Source: a virus
Taxonomy: Duplodnaviria > Heunggongvirae > Uroviricota > Caudoviricetes
Virus record (IMG/VR): IMGVR_UViG_2548876940_000021
Span: 1-6,588 of that record
Length of the DNA: 6,588 bases
Direction: 5' to 3' (one strand)
The notes beneath the pieces were generated by a model. That model was not told where the DNA came from. It did not search any database and was given only the letters and a program-made list of their open reading frames with translations. Every line of letters starts with the position of its first letter. Positions within the stretch are counted from its first letter, which is position 1. The translations under genes and the position numbers were made by a program. Below are positions 1 through 6,588 of the stretch, piece after piece.

Positions 1-135
1 ATGATGCACTTTCAGCTCGCGGGTAGCGGCGTCATGTCCGCTTTCTACCCGCACGAATCTGAATTATCACGCCGAGTTAAACAATTAATCAGAGCAGCAA
101 AGAAACAACTGGAGGCGTTATGCGCAATGAAATAG
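1..135 (+). CDS. cIII-like small protein (FtsH/HflB protease inhibitor family), 44 aa; may extend upstream of the window
   Basis: Stop-free frame from position 1 (ATG ATG) to TAG at 133-135. The translation MMHFQLAGSGVMSAFYPHESELSRRVKQLIRAAKKQLEALCAMK resembles the lambda cIII core as I recall it (..AIAG.PVAG.PSESLLERITRKLRDGWKRLIDIL). Resemblance is from memory, not a search. Confidence 0.5.
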   Translation: MMHFQLAGSGVMSAFYPHESELSRRVKQLIRAAKKQLEALCAMK

Positions 136-272
136 CCATCAATCACCAGATGCTTCGAGCAGCACAAAACAAAGCAGTAATAGCCAGATTTATTGGTGAT
201 TCCAAAATGTGGCTTGAAGCAAATAAAGCGATGAAATCAGCTATCAACCTTCCGTGGTATCGCAGGAAATGA
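120..272 (+). CDS. Kil-like small protein (lambda Kil family, host cell-division inhibitor), 50 aa
   Basis: GGAGG at 111-115 followed by ATG at 120; overlaps the cIII-like ORF by 16 nt. The translation contains AVIARFIGDSKMWLEANKAMK, which resembles the lambda Kil motif I recall (ATFIGDEKMFREA..). Its position after cIII matches lambda gene order. Below the 60-aa cutoff of the ORF track. Confidence 0.45.
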   Translation: MRNEIAINHQMLRAAQNKAVIARFIGDSKMWLEANKAMKSAINLPWYRRK

Positions 273-376
273 GTTTTACAGATAACTGGTCAGACGAAGA
301 ATTCATTCGTCAGATGAAAGAAATGCTCAATCAGCATAAAGAACAGGAGAAAGATGATGATTCTGACTCTGAATGA
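269..376 (+). CDS. Small acidic hypothetical protein, 35 aa
   Basis: ATG at 269-271 overlaps the upstream TGA at 270-272 (ATGA coupling). Translation MSFTDNWSDEEFIRQMKEMLNQHKEQEKDDDSDSE has an acidic tail. Support is positional only. Confidence 0.3.
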   Translation: MSFTDNWSDEEFIRQMKEMLNQHKEQEKDDDSDSE

Positions 377-665
377 TAAGCGTGAAATATCGCAAATCAT
401 CGCAAGTTTTACCGATGAAGATTACGAGCGAATCAACAGTGAAGTTGATCGCCTCTGCAAACGTTGCGACCCAATAAGCGAAATGCTTCGCTCATATAAA
501 CCAGATGAACACACTAAGGACGCTATCGACTGGCTGGAAGATGATGACTGTAACTATCAGGAAAAAGCCGCTGAATGGTTCTGGGATGCAATAACCGAAA
601 GAGTTAAGGCTGAATATGCCTTCGCAATATTCAAACGCAGACATATTTATGGAGAAGCTGCATGA
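354..665 (+). CDS. Hypothetical phage early protein, 103 aa, at the position held by gam in lambda
   Basis: ORF with AGGAG at 345-349 and ATG at 354 or 357. Its stop TGA (663-665) overlaps the recT ATG (662-664). I see no recognisable similarity to lambda Gam. Confidence 0.6.
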   Translation: MMILTLNDKREISQIIASFTDEDYERINSEVDRLCKRCDPISEMLRSYKPDEHTKDAIDWLEDDDCNYQEKAAEWFWDAITERVKAEYAFAIFKRRHIYGEAA

Positions 666-1573
666 GCAATATCGTTGAATTCGTTAAACAGCAAGAGCAG
701 TTATTCTGCGGAGCATTGACTGAACAGACGGTGACATGGGCTAAGGAAAGCCAGTTTGCAATTCAGTATTTCCAGAAAAACGATTACCTGGCTAAAACGG
801 CACTGGCAAATCCAACCAGCGCACAGAACGCCATCATCAATGTTGCGGCGATCGGCATCACCTTAAACCCGGCCAGCAAACTGGCTTATCTGGTTCCGCG
901 CGACGGCATGGTGTGCCTTGATATCAGTTATATGGGATTGCTCCATATTGCAATGGAGTCTGGTGTTATCTCATGGGGTCAGGCAAAACTTGTTCATGCT
1001 AACGATACCTATGAGTCAAACGGGCTTGATAAAGCACCAACCCATAAATACAACGCCTTCGGTGATCGTGGTGATATCGTTGGCGTTTACTGCACAGTTA
1101 AGACGCCAGCAGGTGATTATCTAACGGAAGAGATGAGTCTGGCTGAAATTGAGGCTGTAAGGAAAACAAGCAAGGCGGCATTCAGCGATAAAGGACCATG
1201 GGTAAATCACTGGAATGAGATGGCGCGAAAGACGGTCGTAAAGCGTGCAAGCAAGTATTGGCCTAAGGCATCACGTCTTGATAGTGCTATTCACGTACTA
1301 AACGAAGAAGAAGGTGTGTGGACTGAACCAGTTATGCCGCACAAATCAGAGGAAGATATCCGCGAAGATGAACGGAAACGCCAGCAGGAAATAACGGATA
1401 AAGCACAACTTCTTTGTGATGAAATGGCTCATGCTGAAAACATGGATGATTTGAAGCGATATTTTGCAGAAGCATATCGCCTGACATCTGGAATGAAATT
1501 GCAGCAGAACGTACAAGCCATTTACGCAGAATGCAAAGCGAAACTGGAGGTTGCCAGTGAGCAAACTGTATGA
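662..1573 (+). CDS. recT: RecT-family single-strand annealing protein (Bet/RecT recombinase), 303 aa
   Basis: GGAG at 651-654 then ATG at 662. The segment GPWVNHWNEMARKTVVKRASKYWP matches the conserved RecT motif (Rac RecT GPWVTHWEEMAKKTAIRRLFKYLP, recalled). Size and operon position are appropriate. Confidence 0.9.
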   Translation: MSNIVEFVKQQEQLFCGALTEQTVTWAKESQFAIQYFQKNDYLAKTALANPTSAQNAIINVAAIGITLNPASKLAYLVPRDGMVCLDISYMGLLHIAMESGVISWGQAKLVHANDTYESNGLDKAPTHKYNAFGDRGDIVGVYCTVKTPAGDYLTEEMSLAEIEAVRKTSKAAFSDKGPWVNHWNEMARKTVVKRASKYWPKASRLDSAIHVLNEEEGVWTEPVMPHKSEEDIREDERKRQQEITDKAQLLCDEMAHAENMDDLKRYFAEAYRLTSGMKLQQNVQAIYAECKAKLEVASEQTV

Positions 1574-2039
1574 AATTGCCAATGAATACGCAAAATTGAT
1601 GGATTCAGATTTAGAACCAGAGATGATTGCTGACACAATAGAAGGCATGGAAGGAGAATTTACCGATAAAATAGAGCAACTTCTTTCCGTCATTAAAAAT
1701 GAATCTGGTTATGCCGAACGCCTCAAGGAAGAGGCAAAGTCACTGAATGAGCGAGCCGCAGTAATTCAAAATAAGATTGACAGCATTATGGCGTATATAG
1801 CGTCATCGCTTGAAATGGTTGGCAAGAAAAAGATTCGAGCAGGTATTCACCAGGTAACAATCCGCAAACCGTCAGAAACTGTAGAAATCATCGACTCAAG
1901 CGCCCTTCCTCCTGAATACGTTGAGTTTGAAACGACAATTAAAGCCGACAAACTGGCAATCAAACACCAACTAAAAGCAGGAATAAATATCCCCGGCGCT
2001 CAACTCAAAGTTGGGAAACCTTCACTTCTTATCAAATAA
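1557..2039 (+). CDS. Gp157-family phage protein (Sipho_Gp157-like), about 160 aa
   Basis: GGAGG at 1546-1550 then GTG at 1557 gives an N-terminus MSKLYEIANEYAKL, the characteristic MSKLYEL..Y start of Gp157-family proteins, followed by a coiled-coil-like region. It overlaps the recT 3' end. The ORF track's TTG at 1551 is in the same frame. Confidence 0.75.
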   Translation: MSKLYEIANEYAKLMDSDLEPEMIADTIEGMEGEFTDKIEQLLSVIKNESGYAERLKEEAKSLNERAAVIQNKIDSIMAYIASSLEMVGKKKIRAGIHQVTIRKPSETVEIIDSSALPPEYVEFETTIKADKLAIKHQLKAGINIPGAQLKVGKPSLLIK

Positions 2040-2050
2040 CGGTATCGACT

Positions 2051-2365
2051 ATGAAAAAGACTCCATGGGAGAAATGGGAAGTCGATTTCTTGCGCGAAGT
2101 ATCGGCGACAATGCCAGTTGAAGTTATCGCTGAAAAACTGGAAAGGACTGAAAAAGCAGTAATGGCGAAAGCAACAAGGATTGGTGCTGACATTGTTAGT
2201 CGACTTCGTGGAAGACGCTGGACAAGAGCCGAAGTATCACTTTTCGGTAAGTTCTCCGCAGAAGAAATAGCAATTGCAACCTGCCGCTCAATTTATTCAG
2301 TAAGGGCTATGCGATACAAGCTAAAAAAACTCGATGAAGAAAGAGCGGGCATACGAATAAATTAA
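2051..2365 (+). CDS. Small putative DNA-binding protein with two tandem HTH-like repeats (sigma-70 region 4 / Myb-like), 104 aa
   Basis: Two internal repeats of about 40 aa: [40 protein letters not shown] and [40 protein letters not shown]. Each carries an EIA..L..S/T...V-type recognition-helix pattern. Confidence 0.6.
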
Positions 2366-2381
2366 CAAAGAGGAATTTACC

Positions 2382-2549
2382 ATGAGAGGGCTTGCATACA
2401 ATCCCGGCATTCTTCCGGCAGAAATGATTATTCGCCAACGCGTAAAGCCAATGCCATCGAGAGAGGAATTGCTTAAGAGAAATTCTTTTCCGTCAGTAAA
2501 TCAAAACAAATATCTGAATGCGATGTGGCGCAAAGGAGGCAAGCAGTGA
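2382..2549 (+). CDS. Small hypothetical protein, 55 aa
   Basis: AGAGGA at 2369-2374 then ATG at 2382. Its stop TGA (2547-2549) overlaps the GTG start of the next gene (GTGA). Below the ORF-track cutoff. Confidence 0.45.
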
Positions 2550-2845
2550 GTGTATATCTTATTGATAAACGTCGACGTGGGCAACAAATACCACCTGTAG
2601 GAATTCCGAATCACACATGGTTTTGCGTACTTGATATCGATGGTATGGATGCGTTGGTTGACACTCGTCATTACTGCGATACCGCAACAGCTACTCCGGC
2701 GAAAGCAAAGAAAATGGCTGCTCTGATAGAAAACTGGACTCCACCTGATGGTTGGTGCAATGGGAATGATCGAGATTGGCATGAAAAAATGAAGGGCTAT
2801 ATCTGCGATTTCTTACGTAAATGCAACGGCTTCAGGGTGATGTGA
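2546..2845 (+). CDS. Hypothetical Cys/His-containing phage protein, 99 aa
   Basis: AGGAGG at 2534-2539 then GTG at 2546 six nt downstream. The ORF-track start at 2525 is the same frame, but 2546 has the better ribosome-binding site. Several Cys and His residues suggest possible metal binding. Confidence 0.6.
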
Positions 2846-2846
2846 C

Positions 2847-3485
2847 ATGAACAAGATTGACTATCAGGCACTGCGTGAAGCGGCAGAAAAAGCAACGTGT
2901 GGTGTGTGGTCGCTCGAATATGGAGAGGAGAGATTTGATGCTGGTGATGCGCTAATTCATCGTGACGTTGTTGGATATCTTCCCATTTGCAGAATTGAAG
3001 GAGCGCATCCAGAAAGCGGTTTCGATGAAGATTTCCAAATAGAACAGCAGGCCAATGCTGAATTCATCGCCGCAGCCAATCCGGCTACCGTCTTGGCGCT
3101 GCTTGGCGAGCTGGAAGCAGCAAAAAAGCGCATAGCAGAACTGGAAGCCGAACCTGTAAGCCAAACTTGCAAGTTGAACGAGCCATCGGGCAACTCTCCG
3201 GTAACTCCGGATGGTTGGATAAGCTGTAGTGAGCAGATGCCTGTAATCGGCGAGCTAAATTGGAGAACTAGTTTTCCTTTACTGGTTACGTGTGAGATCG
3301 GCGTTATACCTGCTTATTACGGCTTTGTGAGCGTTAATGGTGATAGGCATTATGGCTTTATGGAGAGTCTTAAATACGGAGACGATAACGGCAACCATCC
3401 TCAAACTAATGAATATGGTCTGATTAGCAATGTCACACACTGGATGCCTCTACCAGAACCGCCTCAGGAGGTTAACCGTGGCTAA
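2847..3485 (+). CDS. Ead/Ea22-like family protein with C-terminal DUF551-like domain, 212 aa
   Basis: N-terminus MNKIDYQALREAAEKAT..ANAEFIAAANPATVLALLGELEAAKKRIAELEA is typical of the Ead/Ea22-like N-region. The C-terminus ends ..VTHWMPLPEPPQ, the hallmark end of DUF551 proteins in enterobacterial prophages. Confidence 0.8.
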   Translation: MNKIDYQALREAAEKATCGVWSLEYGEERFDAGDALIHRDVVGYLPICRIEGAHPESGFDEDFQIEQQANAEFIAAANPATVLALLGELEAAKKRIAELEAEPVSQTCKLNEPSGNSPVTPDGWISCSEQMPVIGELNWRTSFPLLVTCEIGVIPAYYGFVSVNGDRHYGFMESLKYGDDNGNHPQTNEYGLISNVTHWMPLPEPPQEVNRG

Positions 3486-3759
3486 TCTGCAGCTTGCCGT
3501 TAAAGGTGAATACTTCGATGCCATGATTCGCGGTGAGAAAACGGAAGAGTATCGCTTGTGTAATGACTACTGGAATAAGCGAATTATGTTCCGGGAGTAT
3601 GACCGCCTGATTATCACAAAGGGATATCCGAAGCGCGACGACTTCAGTCGCAGAATTGATGTTCCGTATGACGGATATGAAATCAAGACAATCACACATC
3701 CCCACTTCGGCGATAAACCGGTAAAGGTGTTCGCGATAAAGGTGAATATCAATTGCTAA
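3478..3759 (+). CDS. ASCH/PUA-like domain protein, 93 aa
   Basis: AGGAGG at 3466-3471 then GTG at 3478, overlapping the upstream stop. The N-terminal motif LAVKGEYFDAMIRGEKTEEYR fits the ASCH GxKxxExR signature. The ORF-track start at 3430 would overlap the previous gene by 56 nt and is less likely. Confidence 0.65.
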   Translation: MANLQLAVKGEYFDAMIRGEKTEEYRLCNDYWNKRIMFREYDRLIITKGYPKRDDFSRRIDVPYDGYEIKTITHPHFGDKPVKVFAIKVNINC

Positions 3760-3783
3760 ATTAGTAGCATAGCATAAAGATGC

Positions 3784-3807
3784 TTGCATTAATGAAGTGT
3801 GTATAAT
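3784..3807 (+). promoter_or_regulatory. Candidate sigma-70 promoter for the AT-rich cassette (consensus -10 TATAAT at 3802-3807; weak -35)
   Basis: A perfect TATAAT sits about 65 nt upstream of the 63-aa ORF in AT-rich DNA. TTGCAT at 3784-3789 is only 12 nt upstream, which is suboptimal spacing, and hexamers at 16-18 nt spacing are poor. Confidence 0.3.
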
Positions 3808-3871
3808 AACGCCTCATCAATAGTAAACTACTGAAATAGCAAAAAAATGCATATTAAAGAGGATTCGAAAA

Positions 3872-4063
3872 TTGAAAATGTTCATGCAAATAGACAGACG
3901 CATAGATATTAATGGCAATTCATACTTAGTTAGATGCGAAGAGAGGCCTAACGGTGAGTGGCGTGTATATGATATTGACCGTAAGATCAATATCAGCACC
4001 ATGAACAAAGACACTGCCTTTGATGAATGGAAAGCTGAAGCTAAAAAACAACATAATTCGTAG
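3872..4063 (+). CDS. Hypothetical small protein in an AT-rich moron-like insertion, 63 aa
   Basis: ORF with AAAGAGGA at 3856-3863. Start is TTG at 3872, or ATG at 3878 or 3884 in the same frame. Translation MKMFMQIDRRIDINGNSYLVRCEERPNGEWRVYDIDRKINISTMNKDTAFDEWKAEAKKQHNS. The surrounding DNA is clearly more AT-rich than neighbouring genes, and a terminator follows. Confidence 0.5.
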   Translation: MKMFMQIDRRIDINGNSYLVRCEERPNGEWRVYDIDRKINISTMNKDTAFDEWKAEAKKQHNS

Positions 4064-4106
4064 AATTACAAAAACCCTAACCAATTGATGGTTTTCTTTT
4101 ATCTGA

Positions 4107-4130
4107 ACTCGCTACGGCGAGTTTTGTTTT
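4107..4130 (+). terminator. Rho-independent terminator-like hairpin plus T-tract
   Basis: Stem ACTCGC (4107-4112), loop TACG, stem GCGAGT (4117-4122), then TTTGTTTT (4123-4130). It lies 44 nt after the 63-aa ORF stop and directly before the ribosome-binding site of the 114-aa gene. Confidence 0.55.
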
Positions 4131-4143
4131 ATGGAGACAAGAA

Positions 4144-4488
4144 ATGTCAGATTTGGCTATGAAGGTTTTGAAATGGCAATCGACTGGCGATGTAGGCATC
4201 AGTAGCGCAACTCTTGCCTCAATCGCATGTGGACTGAAAAAGAATATCTATGGTCATAGCTTCGGTGCTCCACATGACGCAGCCGATTTCCGACGATGCG
4301 TTGCACTTGTTGAGCAGATTCCAGAAATCAGAGATTCATTCGACAAGGTTGCAAAGCGCGTTCCGGCATTCAAAGGCATCCTCAACGAATGGGATTCACT
4401 CGTTGCTCTGTTGAAGTCTGAAATGAAGACGTATGGGAACAAAGCACCAGAGACTTACAGAAGAATCAGCGAGCTACGCAAGGACTAA
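4144..4488 (+). CDS. Hypothetical phage protein, 114 aa
   Basis: GGAG at 4133-4136 then ATG at 4144. Clean ORF with ordinary composition and no family I can recognise. Terminator-like hairpins lie on both sides. Confidence 0.65.
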   Translation: MSDLAMKVLKWQSTGDVGISSATLASIACGLKKNIYGHSFGAPHDAADFRRCVALVEQIPEIRDSFDKVAKRVPAFKGILNEWDSLVALLKSEMKTYGNKAPETYRRISELRKD

Positions 4489-4545
4489 CCCACCTCACAC
4501 TCGATGAGGCCTGTTCATTGCTCAATGATATCCAGACCTACCATC

Positions 4546-4569
4546 GCCGCATCAATGCGGCTTTTTCTT
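4546..4569 (+). terminator. Rho-independent terminator-like hairpin plus T-tract
   Basis: GCCGC (4546-4550), loop ATCAAT, GCGGC (4557-4561), then TTTTTCTT (4562-4569). It lies 58 nt after the 114-aa ORF stop. Confidence 0.55.
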
Positions 4570-4611
4570 GCCTGATTTGCAGGTTCGATTCCCTATTCGG
4601 AGATAGCACTC

Positions 4612-4812
4612 ATGCAACACGAACTACAACCTGATTCACTGGTTGATTTGAAATTCATCATGGCCGATACTGGCTTCGGTAAAACCTTCATCTATGACCG
4701 GATTAAGTCCGGCGACCTGCCAAAAGCCAAAGTTATCCACGGGCGAGCAAGATGGTTATATCGTGACCATTGTGAATTCAAAAATAAGCTCTTAAGCCGC
4801 GCCAATGGGTAA
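4612..4812 (+). CDS. AlpA-family / excisionase-like HTH regulatory protein (Xis candidate), 66 aa
   Basis: GGAG at 4599-4602 then ATG at 4612. The translation LVDLKFIMADTGFGKTFIYDRIKSGDLPKAKVIHGRARWLYRDHCEFKNKLL follows the AlpA/Xis HTH pattern (..tG.s..tiY.li..G.fP.p.k.g.r..W...ev..w). It is the last gene of the + strand operon. Confidence 0.75.
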   Translation: MQHELQPDSLVDLKFIMADTGFGKTFIYDRIKSGDLPKAKVIHGRARWLYRDHCEFKNKLLSRANG

Positions 4813-4828
4813 AATAGCGGGTAAAATA
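4807..4828 (+). repeat. Tandem direct repeat GGGTAAAATA x2 (period 12) spanning the AlpA-like stop codon
   Basis: Read directly: GGGTAAAATA at 4807-4816 and again at 4819-4828, separated by GC. This is where recombinase arm-type or regulator binding sites might be expected. Confidence 0.6.
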
Positions 4829-4861
4829 TTTCTCACATCTAAAAAACTCCATTCCAATCAA

Positions 4862-4895
4862 TCCCCTGCCGCTTCAAGTAGATGTCTGCAGGGGA
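4862..4895. repeat. Perfect 8-bp inverted repeat TCCCCTGC / GCAGGGGA with an 18-nt spacer
   Basis: Read directly: 4862-4869 and 4888-4895 are reverse complements. No T-tract follows, so it looks more like a protein-binding or recombination site than a terminator. Confidence 0.55.
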
Positions 4896-5288
4896 CACCA
4901 GATACCCTTCAAACGAAATCTACCTTCACCCCGTAAAAGATAGGTTTGGCAGCACACTTGCCTTATATCTACTCATTTTTACTGCAACAGGTTGAAATCT
5001 CAGCACTGTCAGAAAGCGCTGATGACTAAACAGCCCTGGGCCGGGCGATGTAACCATCACACAGAATCCTGATAGCGAAATATGGCGTGACTCGATACTT
5101 CACTCCGCAATGCATTCCTTGATGAATTCGCAGGACCGTGATACACGGGACAGGTCGCTGAATGACGACAATGTCCTGGAAATCAGCGAACCGCGCATCT
5201 GAAGTACATTTGAGCGACTGTACCAGAACATGAATGAGGCGTTTGGATTAGGTGATTATTAGCAGGGCTAAGCACTTTAGTATTATTA

Positions 5289-5332
5289 TTTTCCGGTTGA
5301 GGGATAGGGAGATATCGACAACAACCGGAAAA
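5289..5332. repeat. Perfect 11-bp inverted repeat TTTTCCGGTTG / CAACCGGAAAA with a 22-nt spacer, 9 nt beyond the MFS gene stop; possible terminator or junction element
   Basis: Read directly: 5289-5299 and 5322-5332 are reverse complements. It sits between convergent transcription units, and neither strand has a clean U-tract after it. Confidence 0.45.
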
Positions 5333-5340
5333 GTTTACGT

Positions 5341-6588
5341 CTATATTGCTGAAGGTACAGGCGTTTCCATAACTATTTGCTCGCGTTTTTTACTCAGGAA
5401 GAAAATGCCAAATAGCAACATCAGGCAGACAATACCCGAAATTGCGAAGAAAACTGTCTGGTAGCCTGCGTGGTCAAAGAGTATCCCAGTCGGCGTTGAA
5501 AGCAGCACAATCCCAAGCGAACTGGCAATTTGAAAACCAATCAGAAAGATCGTCGACGACAGGCGCTTATCAAAATTTGCCACGCTGTATTTGAAGACGG
5601 ATATGACACAAAGTGGAACCTCAATAGCATGTAACAGCTTCACTAATGAAATAATCCAGGGGTTAACGAACAGCGCGCAGGAAAGGATACGCAACGCCAT
5701 AATCACAACACCGATAAGTAATGCATTTTTTGGCCCTACCCGATTCACAAAGAAAGGAATAATCGCCATGCATAGCGCTTCGAGTACCACCTGGAATGAG
5801 TTGAGATAACCATACAGGCGCGTTCCTACATCGTGTGATTCGAATAAACCTGCATAAAAGACAGGAAAAAGTTGTTGATCAAAAATGTTATAGAAAGACC
5901 ACGTCCCCACAATAAATATGACGAAAACCCAGAAGTTTCGATCCTTGAAAACTGCGATAAAATCCTCTTTTTTTACCCCTCCCGCATCCGCCGCTACGCA
6001 CTGGTGATCCTTATCTTTAAAACACATGTTGATCATCATAAATACAGCGCCAAATAGCGAGACCAACCAGAAGTTGATATGGGGACTGATACTAAAAAAT
6101 ATGCCGGCAAAGAACGCGCCAATAGCATAGCCAAAAGATCCCCAGGCGCGCGCTGTTCCATATTCGAAATGAAAATTTCGCGCCATTTTTTCGGTGAAGC
6201 TGTCAAGCAAACCGCATCCCGCCAGATACCCCAGGCCAAAAAAGAGCGCCCCCAGAATTAGACCTACAGAAAAATTGCTTTGCAGTAACGGTTCATAAAC
6301 GTAAATCATAAACGGTCCGGTCAAGACCAGGATGAAACTCATACACCAGATGAGCGGTTTCTTCAGACCGAGTTTATCCTGAACGATGCCGTAGAACATC
6401 ATAAATAGAATGCTGGTAAACTGGTTGACCGAATAAAGTGTACCTAATTCCGTCCCTGTCAACCCTAGATGTCCTTTCAGCCAAATAGCGTATAACGACC
6501 ACCACAGCGACCAGGAAATAAAAAAGAGAAATGAGTAACTGGATGCAAAACGATAGTACGCATTTCTGAATGGAATATTCAGTGCCAT
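5341..6588 (-). CDS. MFS transporter, LacY-like oligosaccharide:H+ symporter family, 415 aa
   Basis: Long minus-strand ORF whose ATG is the last three bases of the window. The translation is hydrophobic throughout with about 12 predicted membrane spans. Motifs match LacY as recalled: GIVQDKLGLKKPLIW against LacY GLLSDKLGLRKYLLW, and FNIFDQQ...GTRLYGY...NRVGPKNALL against LacY YDVFDQQ...GTRVFGY...NRIGGKNALL. Confidence 0.85.
   Translation of the reverse strand: MALNIPFRNAYYRFASSYSFLFFISWSLWWSLYAIWLKGHLGLTGTELGTLYSVNQFTSILFMMFYGIVQDKLGLKKPLIWCMSFILVLTGPFMIYVYEPLLQSNFSVGLILGALFFGLGYLAGCGLLDSFTEKMARNFHFEYGTARAWGSFGYAIGAFFAGIFFSISPHINFWLVSLFGAVFMMINMCFKDKDHQCVAADAGGVKKEDFIAVFKDRNFWVFVIFIVGTWSFYNIFDQQLFPVFYAGLFESHDVGTRLYGYLNSFQVVLEALCMAIIPFFVNRVGPKNALLIGVVIMALRILSCALFVNPWIISLVKLLHAIEVPLCVISVFKYSVANFDKRLSSTIFLIGFQIASSLGIVLLSTPTGILFDHAGYQTVFFAISGIVCLMLLFGIFFLSKKREQIVMETPVPSAI

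Follow-up and report, generated by a model that had tools for sequence, protein, structure and literature searches.

In bacteriophages λ and P22, kil marks the left edge of a swappable recombination cassette; the λ gene order is cIII-kil-gam-bet-exo and that of P22 is c3-kil-arf-erf-abc1-abc2, followed by orf56. Among lambdoid recombination (Rec) modules, 84 of 246 lack a nuclease, P22 Erf being the classic case (PMC12315714), so that a RecT gene without an exonuclease is not the oddity for which it had first been taken. The survey of Zheng, Casjens, Davidson, Amundsen and Smith (2025, Genome Res; PMC12315714) places the HK140-type module in the 'P22' functional class, which combines an anti-RecBCD function with an annealing protein and has no nuclease or SSB, and lists HK140 itself as SAP type 4, MuGam, no nuclease. 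In Firmicutes phages, genes encoding Gp157, Mu Gam, DUF1351 or DUF2483 flank erf-ssb and sak4, so that Gp157 has been reported beside annealing proteins other than RecT, and the usual companion of RecT is a YqaJ-like or DUF3799 nuclease (Steczkiewicz et al. 2021; PMC8093625). Mu-type Gam binds DNA ends and blocks the loading of RecBCD, and homologs with identities down to 14% behave alike (PMC12407980).

Here we describe a window of 6,588 nucleotides (the whole stretch of DNA analyzed, positions 1–6,588) that carries the early-left operon (pL) of a lambdoid prophage from E. coli. An HK140-type recombination module consisting of orf40, orf103, recT, gp157 and an abc1-like gene lies there (Table 1), its left and right edges marked by kil and a homolog of P22 orf56. 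This copy of the cassette sits in a prophage adjoining cscB, and in a near-identical prophage cI, N, ral, sieB and one small hypothetical ORF precede the region covered by the window. The order kil-orf40-orf103-recT-gp157-abc1like-orf56 homolog, with no SSB or nuclease matches, is that of a lambdoid 'P22'-type Rec module. The cassettes of HK140 and mEpX1 are 96–97% identical to the window at the nucleotide level, the gene order agrees with gp42-gp41-gp40-gp39 of HK140, and we find no essential difference between the HK140-type module and the one in the window; the flanking ea genes differ, as is expected of mosaic phages. The cassette is thus an ordinary one, already catalogued in RefSeq, in PHROGs and in the 2025 Rec-module survey, and is carried by 266–302 of 5426 complete E. 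coli genomes (~5%).

Table 1. Features of the recombination cassette, with positions in the window
Feature	Positions	Strand	Description	Matches or basis
kil	120..272	+		Pfam Lambda_Kil E=1.7e-20; PHROG 2055 E=1e-35
orf40	254..376	+	40 aa, in the position of P22 arf	PHROG 17766 E=1e-15; PHROG 2123 ('recombinase') E=8e-12
orf103	354..665	+	Acidic, 103 aa	PHROG 3486 E=2e-59 (PHROG without assigned function)
recT	662..1573	+	RecT-family single-strand annealing protein, 303 aa	PF03837 E=2.8e-32; PHROG 148 E=3e-92; TIGR00616
Ribosome-binding site of gp157	1546..1550	+	GGAGG, inside the 3' end of recT	6 nt before GTG 1557 (sequence reading)
gp157	1557..2039	+	Gp157-family, 160 aa, candidate for binding DNA ends like Mu Gam and countering RecBCD	PF05565; PHROG 253
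abc1-like	2051..2365	+	104 aa, PHROG label 'D5-like transcriptional regulator'	PHROG 323 E=2.6e-19
P22 orf56 homolog (DUF2737)	2382..2549	+		PHROG 1117 E=1e-37; 77% identity to P22 orf56

RecT is the module's predicted strand-annealing enzyme. It passes the family thresholds (112 bits for PF03837, whose cut-off is 24, and 82.4 bits for TIGR00616, whose cut-off is 52.65), gives a weak match to the Listeria RecT structure 7UB2, and belongs to SAP type 4 of Zheng et al., a different subtype from the RecT of the Rac prophage. As the original prediction had it, recT is overlapped downstream by a gene of the Gp157 family; with the recT stop codon (TGA) at 1571–1573, the overlap measures 17 nt. The product of this gene matches PF05565 (Sipho_Gp157) from end to end (profile positions 1–162 of 162, E=9e-37; score 127 bits, cut-off 28.6) and falls in PHROG 253 (E=7e-54), which is named 'Mu Gam-like end protection'; it has 7217 representative homologs at E≤0.001. 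Its AlphaFold model (pLDDT 95) matches BFVD models named Gp157 or 'resistance protein' (TM 0.7–0.8, E down to 5e-11), so that the predicted fold is shared with other members of PF05565. The assignment of the start codon to GTG 1557 also holds: this codon has GGAGG 6 nt upstream and fits the family consensus M-x-x-L-Y-E-I. TTG 1551, given by the ORF finder, does not serve as the start. The overlap, together with the ribosome-binding site lying within recT, would couple the translation of RecT and Gp157. We note that recT lies directly upstream of gp157 in 79 of the 79 IMG/VR loci with sufficient upstream sequence, that Gp157 does behave like an accessory travelling with the recombination module, and that the order orf103-recT-gp157 is kept in Pantoea phage PA-1, where the identity of Gp157 is only 59%.

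No exonuclease was found among the window ORFs scanned with Pfam, PHROGs, NCBIfam or PADLOC, from kil (120–272) to xis (4612–4812), or among the upstream genes of the near-identical prophage. HK140, Gally and mEpX1, whose genomes are complete, have no 5'-3' exonuclease among their annotated genes, and tblastn did not find λ Exo in these three, in PDP110P1 or in 80 IMG/VR loci. There is, then, no exonuclease gene adjoining recT of the kind that defines a two-component recombinase, and the module lacks its own nuclease, as do those of P22 (erf-abc1-abc2) and HK620. Because both family calls are right and an exonuclease is absent, neither a neighboring exonuclease gene nor a failed match to Gp157 profiles stands against the original prediction.

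The module can be compared position by position with those of other phages. Like that of P22, it lies between kil and orf56, counts an Abc1-family gene among its members, and provides an annealing protein but no nuclease to go with it; it differs from P22 in having RecT in place of Erf, in having Gp157 in place of Abc2, which it does not resemble in sequence, and in gene order, gp157 preceding the abc1-like gene here whereas abc1 precedes abc2 in P22. With λ Red (gam-bet-exo) and Rac RecET it shares the operon position after kil and an annealing protein of the Red-beta/RecT superfamily, but it is without a 5'-3' exonuclease and without a λ-type Gam, and its RecT falls below the Rac prophage RecT equivalog cut-off (NF007351, 101.9 bits against 296). 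The gene for Gp157 fills the slot of λ exo or P22 abc1/abc2. Its downstream neighbor, found in 79 of 80 loci, belongs to a PHROG (323) that also takes in P22 Abc1 (E=1.3e-23) and Mu gp9 (E=5e-29), the gene for which sits just before Mu gam; an Abc1-family gene thus adjoins Abc2 in P22, gam in Mu and gp157 in the window. By BLASTP the Abc1-like protein matches Mu gp9 (E=8e-5) and gives no match to P22 Abc1, to which it is linked through the shared PHROG 323. The Gally record names its homolog 'Anti-RecBCD protein 1, similar to P22 Abc1'.

The stop codon of orf103 overlaps the start of recT (ATGA, 662–665), so that the two genes are translationally coupled; orf103 is present in 77 of 80 loci, and a homolog with 28% identity stands ahead of recT in Pantoea phage PA-1. 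Pfam, NCBIfam and PADLOC scans gave no match for its product. The gene occupies the slot of λ gam, which in phage Dewey is filled by a true λ Gam (PF06064, E=1.5e-50). We rejected the idea that the orf103 product is itself a diverged λ Gam, since only a 23-residue motif matches, hhalign gives a probability of 5%, and λ Gam is absent among the PDB profile matches. Similarly, orf40 is present in 75 of 80 related loci, and identifying its product with Arf is unsupported, the match to P22 Arf being only a 7-residue motif (SDEEFI).

What the analysis establishes is the gene identities, gene order, conserved linkage, absence of a nuclease and slot equivalence with λ, P22 and Mu; end binding and RecBCD antagonism by Gp157, and the source of single-stranded DNA for RecT, are what we infer. 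With moderate confidence, we read Gp157 as an accessory of a Rec module without a nuclease, one that would bind DNA ends as Mu Gam does and counter RecBCD. Most likely, Gp157 is a dimeric coiled-coil protein that would sit, like Mu Gam, on the ends of double-stranded DNA and there shield the injected linear genome and rolling-circle tails from RecBCD and perhaps from other exonucleases; RecT would then act on single-stranded DNA supplied by host functions or by replication. Several observations point to end protection. The mechanism of Gp157 had been described as poorly defined, yet both PHROGs and RefSeq (for HK140 gp40) already name the family 'Mu Gam-like end protection'. The slot equivalence and the Abc1-family neighbor point the same way, and the other known inhibitors of RecBCD, λ Gam and P22 Abc2, were not found in four complete cassette-bearing genomes. 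Our literature search did not find a biochemical test of any PF05565 protein.

Direct comparisons of Gp157 with Mu Gam give sequence evidence that is weak but consistent, and a fold search that is negative. The two proteins are of similar size, share a weak colinear similarity and have an Abc1-family neighbor, although Mu gam has no adjoining annealing protein and Gp157 scores under the Pfam Mu Gam threshold (PF07352, E=0.007, 16.7 bits against a gathering threshold of 28.3, colinear over profile positions 28–147 of 149). PF07352 is nevertheless the commonest secondary match among diverse Gp157 members (16 of 136, best E=5e-6). Aligned by hhalign to a Mu Gam profile that is shallow (Neff 1.7, two attempts at deepening it having yielded only relatives with at least 64% identity), Gp157 gives 102 colinear columns with E=1.2e-3 and a probability of only 19%. 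K132 of Gp157 (D-K-x-x-I), which is nearly invariant, falls in this alignment next to the Mu Gam motif N-K-E-A-I, one column off; the lysine of that motif is invariant in the shallow profile used. In AlphaFold models both proteins have an N-terminal helix of 60–70 residues, then a β hairpin and, ~40 residues later, a short helix. The fold search with Gp157 gave no match to the solved structures 2P2U, of a homolog of Mu Gam (a Ku-like DNA end binder), or 1JEY (Ku), and Gp157 had no real match in the PDB, whether searched by sequence or by profile.

Two observations bear on whether Gp157 inhibits RecBCD. Phage Dewey carries its genuine λ Gam together with RecT and Gp157, so that Gp157 is not simply "the" RecBCD inhibitor. 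HK140 and mEpX1 have 4 and 6 Chi sites, respectively, all on one strand, a pattern more typical of phages that do not inactivate RecBCD and one that counts against an anti-RecBCD role; Gally and PDP110P1 have none, and as a proxy for RecBCD inhibition Chi counting thus gives mixed results that are confounded by mosaic ancestry.

It is possible, though we think it unlikely, that Gp157 is instead a dedicated physical partner of RecT, one that binds, for example, its C-terminal domain and loads or stimulates it. Such a role would have a model in λ Exo, which loads or stimulates Beta and whose slot gp157 occupies. The overlap with recT and the translational coupling it would bring, the constant adjacency, and the order preserved in PA-1 are all in keeping with such a partnership. 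The coupling of RecT and Gp157 that was first noted is real, but it is not specific to RecT. Gp157 homologs flank Sak4/AAA_24 in Klebsiella, Listeria, Staphylococcus and S. thermophilus phages, Erf in C. difficile phages and a probable Rad52-like protein in a Vibrio phage, either upstream or downstream of the annealing gene; in our census, which draws on the literature and roughly a dozen annotated phages and is not a systematic count, they stand beside annealing proteins of four kinds, in most cases with no nuclease. Because the folds of these partners are unrelated, a dedicated RecT-binding function is improbable. The Firmicutes modules, like the window, place the Gp157 family beside an annealing protein without a nuclease; there gp157 lies upstream, whereas in the window the partner is RecT and gp157 lies downstream. 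Moreover, RecT of the same sequence type occurs elsewhere with GamL or without any inhibitor (Zheng et al. 2025).

In a further and distinctly unlikely reading, Gp157 would stand in for the missing exonuclease, acting as an end-bound adaptor that recruits or redirects a host nuclease or helicase, much as P22 Abc2 acts on RecBCD, so as to yield 3' single-stranded tails for any annealing protein. Gp157 has the nuclease/Abc position adjoining the annealing gene, and the Gp157-bearing modules sampled are without a λ-Exo-type or RecE-type nuclease. Coexistence with a true λ Gam in Dewey suggests a non-redundant role, and the oriented Chi sites of HK140 and mEpX1 fit a RecBCD that is still active. 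We give an equally small chance to the broader proposal that the Gp157 family is a distinct, widespread class (>7000 sequence clusters) of end-bound adaptors that replace a phage exonuclease and are not simple Mu-Gam-type blockers, and, with the same reserve, to the proposal that Gp157, together with the Abc1-like protein and the orf103 product, hands resected ends to RecT, Erf, Sak4 or Rad52-like proteins; such a class would explain both the Dewey and the Chi observations. Nucleases may, however, sometimes co-occur with Gp157, since gp32 of D6E, encoded next to a Gp157 gene, carries an ExoX-like motif at its C terminus and the neighbor of gp157 in Vibrio D56 falls in PHROGs named 'exonuclease'.

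Still less probable is a role in which Gp157 drives end joining, and hence circularization, of the infecting genome with a host ligase, as reportedly occurs with mycobacteriophage Ku. Mu Gam reportedly stimulates the joining of ends by E. coli ligase (Bhattacharyya 2018), and the cassette is found in both cos and headful-packaging phages, which must circularize. This proposal depends, however, on the same unproven homology to Mu Gam, and the fact that Gp157 is constantly paired with annealing proteins speaks for circularization by homology rather than by end joining.

In S. thermophilus, the phage sensitivity that had been tied to the Gp157 protein in fact traces to PER, a non-coding origin element of 302 bp; this element overlaps the region of the gene and acts as a decoy (PMC6356513). 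We therefore regard it as extremely unlikely that Gp157 is a host-protecting defense or superinfection-exclusion factor, despite its Pfam history and the 'Resistance protein' names on BFVD and nr entries, since PADLOC defense models gave no match at E≤0.01 for the eight proteins from orf103 (354–665) to orf114 (4144–4488) and gp157 lies within the lytic pL operon among recombination genes, with no + strand terminator found upstream of it within the window and promoter-like matches there not above chance expectation. The original prediction had offered "defense or anti-defense factor" as one option; the anti-defense half, an anti-RecBCD role, is our leading reading, and the host-defense half is extremely unlikely.

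Lastly, PF05565 is a very large family that occurs beside four unrelated kinds of annealing protein and to which a function has been assigned only from weak homology and gene position. In recombineering with linear DNA, Gp157 could serve as a compact helper. A settled function for Gp157 would also predict which phages are sensitized to Gabija-type defenses that sense end-binding proteins.

Both genes of the recT-Gp157 pair were called correctly in the original prediction, as profile searches assign each to its family (see the table), the Gp157 match covering the entire profile. The predicted start of the Gp157 gene also holds: a GTG at 1557, it lies 6 nt past a GGAGG ribosome-binding site that falls within recT, and it yields the family-consensus N-terminus. 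Because RecT ends at 1573, the reported overlap of the two genes is real and amounts to 17 nt; the 103-aa ORF and the recT start overlap by ATGA. From position 1 to ~4800 the + strand carries one series of tightly packed, often overlapping genes, the usual make-up of a lambdoid early-left (pL) operon. We found no tRNA and no Rfam match in the window. No + strand terminator-like site was found upstream of 4105 and promoter-like matches in the window are fewer than expected by chance, which would fit a single transcript across the cassette.

Genes of the window, with profile or sequence matches
Feature	Position	Strand	Match
cIII-like ORF	1-135	+	
kil	120-272	+	
40-aa ORF (orf40)	254-376	+	
103-aa ORF (orf103)	354-665	+	
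recT	662-1573	+	PF03837 E=2.8e-32; PHROG 148 E=3e-92
Gp157-family gene	1557-2039	+	PF05565, whole profile, E=9e-37
104-aa gene	2051-2365	+	PHROG 323 E=2.6e-19
DUF2737 gene (orf55)	2382-2549	+	77% identity to P22 orf56
DUF7739, Ead/Ea22-DUF551, ASCH-like and other "ea" genes	after DUF2737 gene, before excisionase	+	
excisionase (xis)	4612-4812	+	
cscB (sucrose permease)	5341-6588	opposite to pL genes	

The conserved coupling that had been proposed is borne out: recT and the Gp157 gene are tightly linked, RecT lying directly upstream in 79/79 informative IMG/VR loci. Of 80 loci, 75-80 have the genes of the block orf40-orf103-recT-gp157-104aa-DUF2737; the genes flanking it are variable (3-42 of 80). 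Among 5426 complete E. coli genomes, 266-302 carry the four-gene core. We note that, across 78 related loci, RecT residues 81-260 share just 75-91% identity with the window copy, against 97-100% for residues 1-80, residues 261-280 and the adjoining genes, a pattern that suggests allele exchange inside recT.

The absence of an adjacent exonuclease is likewise upheld, both within the window, where no exonuclease domain was found among the ORFs scanned from kil through xis, and beyond it, as the complete genomes of HK140, Gally and mEpX1, which carry the cassette at 96-99% identity, have no annotated 5'-3' exonuclease. Searches with tblastn for λ Exo, Beta and Gam and for P22 Abc2 found none in these genomes, PDP110P1 or the 80 IMG/VR loci. 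Contrary to what had been supposed, this arrangement is not unusual: a survey covering Rec modules from 325 lambdoid phages (Zheng, Casjens, Davidson, Amundsen, Smith, Genome Res 2025, PMC12315714) found 84 of 246 modules without a nuclease and defined a P22-like functional class that combines an anti-RecBCD protein with an annealing protein and lacks a nuclease. In HK140 the sole candidates for these two roles are gp41 (RecT) and gp40 (Gp157 family), homologues of the window genes.

Comparison of the gene orders in λ (cIII-kil-gam-bet-exo), P22 (c3-kil-arf-erf-abc1-abc2-orf56) and the window (cIII-kil-orf40-orf103-recT-gp157-104aa-orf55) marks the kil-to-orf56 segment as a swappable recombination cassette, in which Gp157 takes the position of exo in λ and of the anti-RecBCD genes in P22. 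PHROG 323, labelled 'D5-like transcriptional regulator', takes in the 104-aa protein, P22 Abc1 (genome L178, 3971-4255; E=1.3e-23) and Mu gp9 (genome L004, 5482-5781; E=5e-29), which directly precedes Mu gam, and the curated Gally record names the 104-aa homologue Abc1-like. Genes of the Abc1 family are thus found with Abc2 (P22), with Gam (Mu) and with Gp157 (the window), so that in each of three phage types the neighbour is an anti-RecBCD or Gam-like gene.

The proposal that Gp157 is a partner specific to RecT fares less well. The family is large (7217 representative clusters at E<=0.001), and although it adjoins RecT in E. coli phages and Pantoea PA-1, it also adjoins Sak4/AAA_24 (Klebsiella VLCpiS13c, Listeria LP-030-2, Staphylococcus phiMR11, S. 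thermophilus CHPC873), Erf (C. difficile CDMH1) and a gene with a weak Rad52 match (Vibrio D56). Its place in annotated phages may be on either side of the annealing gene, upstream or downstream, as also described in Firmicutes phages, where the Mu Gam, Gp157, DUF1351 and DUF2483 genes were proposed to be functionally analogous (Steczkiewicz et al. 2021, PMC8093625). Because the family accompanies four structurally unrelated annealing proteins, it is more likely that Gp157 acts on DNA ends or the host than as a dedicated RecT-binding subunit. The link to phage sensitivity, for its part, traces to a non-coding origin fragment acting as a decoy (PMC6356513), and none of the eight window proteins scanned, from orf103 through the ORF at 4144-4488, matches a PADLOC defence model (E<=0.01). 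We note that the D56 gene (genome L091, 3097-3867), which overlaps the Gp157 homologue, carries the annotation 'exonuclease' and is placed in PHROGs so named; its sole Pfam match is a weak one to Rad52/22 (E=1.2e-3), and it may be a mislabelled annealing protein. In phage D6E, gp32 (genome L090, 3974-4771), after the Gp157 homologue, has as its sole matches an ExoX-like motif at the C-terminus (PF20600, E=9e-14) and a PHROG of unknown function, and may be a case of a nuclease-related protein accompanying Gp157.

What Gp157 does may be indicated by Mu Gam. PHROG 253, which Gp157 matches, bears the name "Mu Gam-like end protection". The window protein has a colinear, sub-threshold match to PF07352 (E=0.007), the most frequent secondary match among 136 diverse Gp157 members (16/136, best E=5e-6), and hhalign aligns Gp157 with Mu Gam over 102 colinear columns (E=1.2e-3, probability just 19%). 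In the confident AlphaFold model of Gp157 (pLDDT 95), a 68-residue helix comes first, then a beta hairpin, extended segments and finally a short helix; the elements follow one another in the same way in the Mu Gam model, which is less confident (pLDDT 77). Since fold searches of the PDB returned neither Gam nor Ku, and those of BFVD solely Gp157-family models, homology to Mu Gam is plausible but not demonstrated by these tests. In the family alignment, 13/136 members also match Pfam DUF7307 (Pam3 gp33-like protein; best E=1e-5), which may be another related family. Mu-type Gam proteins, some just 14% identical to one another, block RecBCD loading and make phages sensitive to the Gabija defence system (2025 preprint, PMC12407980). 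For Gp157-family proteins, the literature search turned up no direct test of DNA-end binding or RecBCD inhibition.

Two observations complicate a role in plain end blocking. In phage Dewey the slot of orf103, which is also λ's gam slot, holds a true λ Gam (PF06064, E=1.5e-50), followed by RecT and Gp157; the presence of a classical RecBCD inhibitor thus does not preclude Gp157. Chi sites, usually depleted in RecBCD-inhibiting phages (PMC3784561; PMC12315714), number 4 in HK140 (2143, 13519, 15106, 16201) and 6 in mEpX1, all on one strand in each genome, and 0 each in Gally and PDP110P1. Such oriented enrichment is unexpected if the module blocks RecBCD fully; the counts cannot decide the matter, as the genomes are mosaic and ~1-3 sites are expected per genome. 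Together, Dewey and the mixed Chi sites leave some room for another role, such as an adaptor replacing the missing nuclease.

The orf103 product, an acidic protein of PHROG 3486 without assigned function, may be a fifth component of the module; its gene shows translational coupling to recT and accompanies it in 77/80 loci, and Pantoea phage PA-1 has a 28% identical homologue. Its resemblance to λ Gam is confined to one 23-residue motif, and profile comparison lends no support to homology. The orf40 gene holds the position of P22 arf, its product has the motif SDEEFI in common with the N-terminus of Arf and it matches a PHROG named 'recombinase'; the match is too short for a call of homology. 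At the other end of the operon (window 4612-5340), ~530 nt without a gene separate the excisionase gene from cscB, a related genome having a small DUF4942 fragment annotated in this gap, and neither integrase nor tRNA is present at this prophage end. As the attachment site of phage Kapi1 is marked directly after xis, the integrase is probably at the other prophage end.

The recT-Gp157 cassette is thus a known, common module, which the original prediction described correctly. The interpretation offered there is supported in part: Gp157 is an accessory that travels with this recombination module and a probable anti-RecBCD factor, but not a partner specific to RecT.
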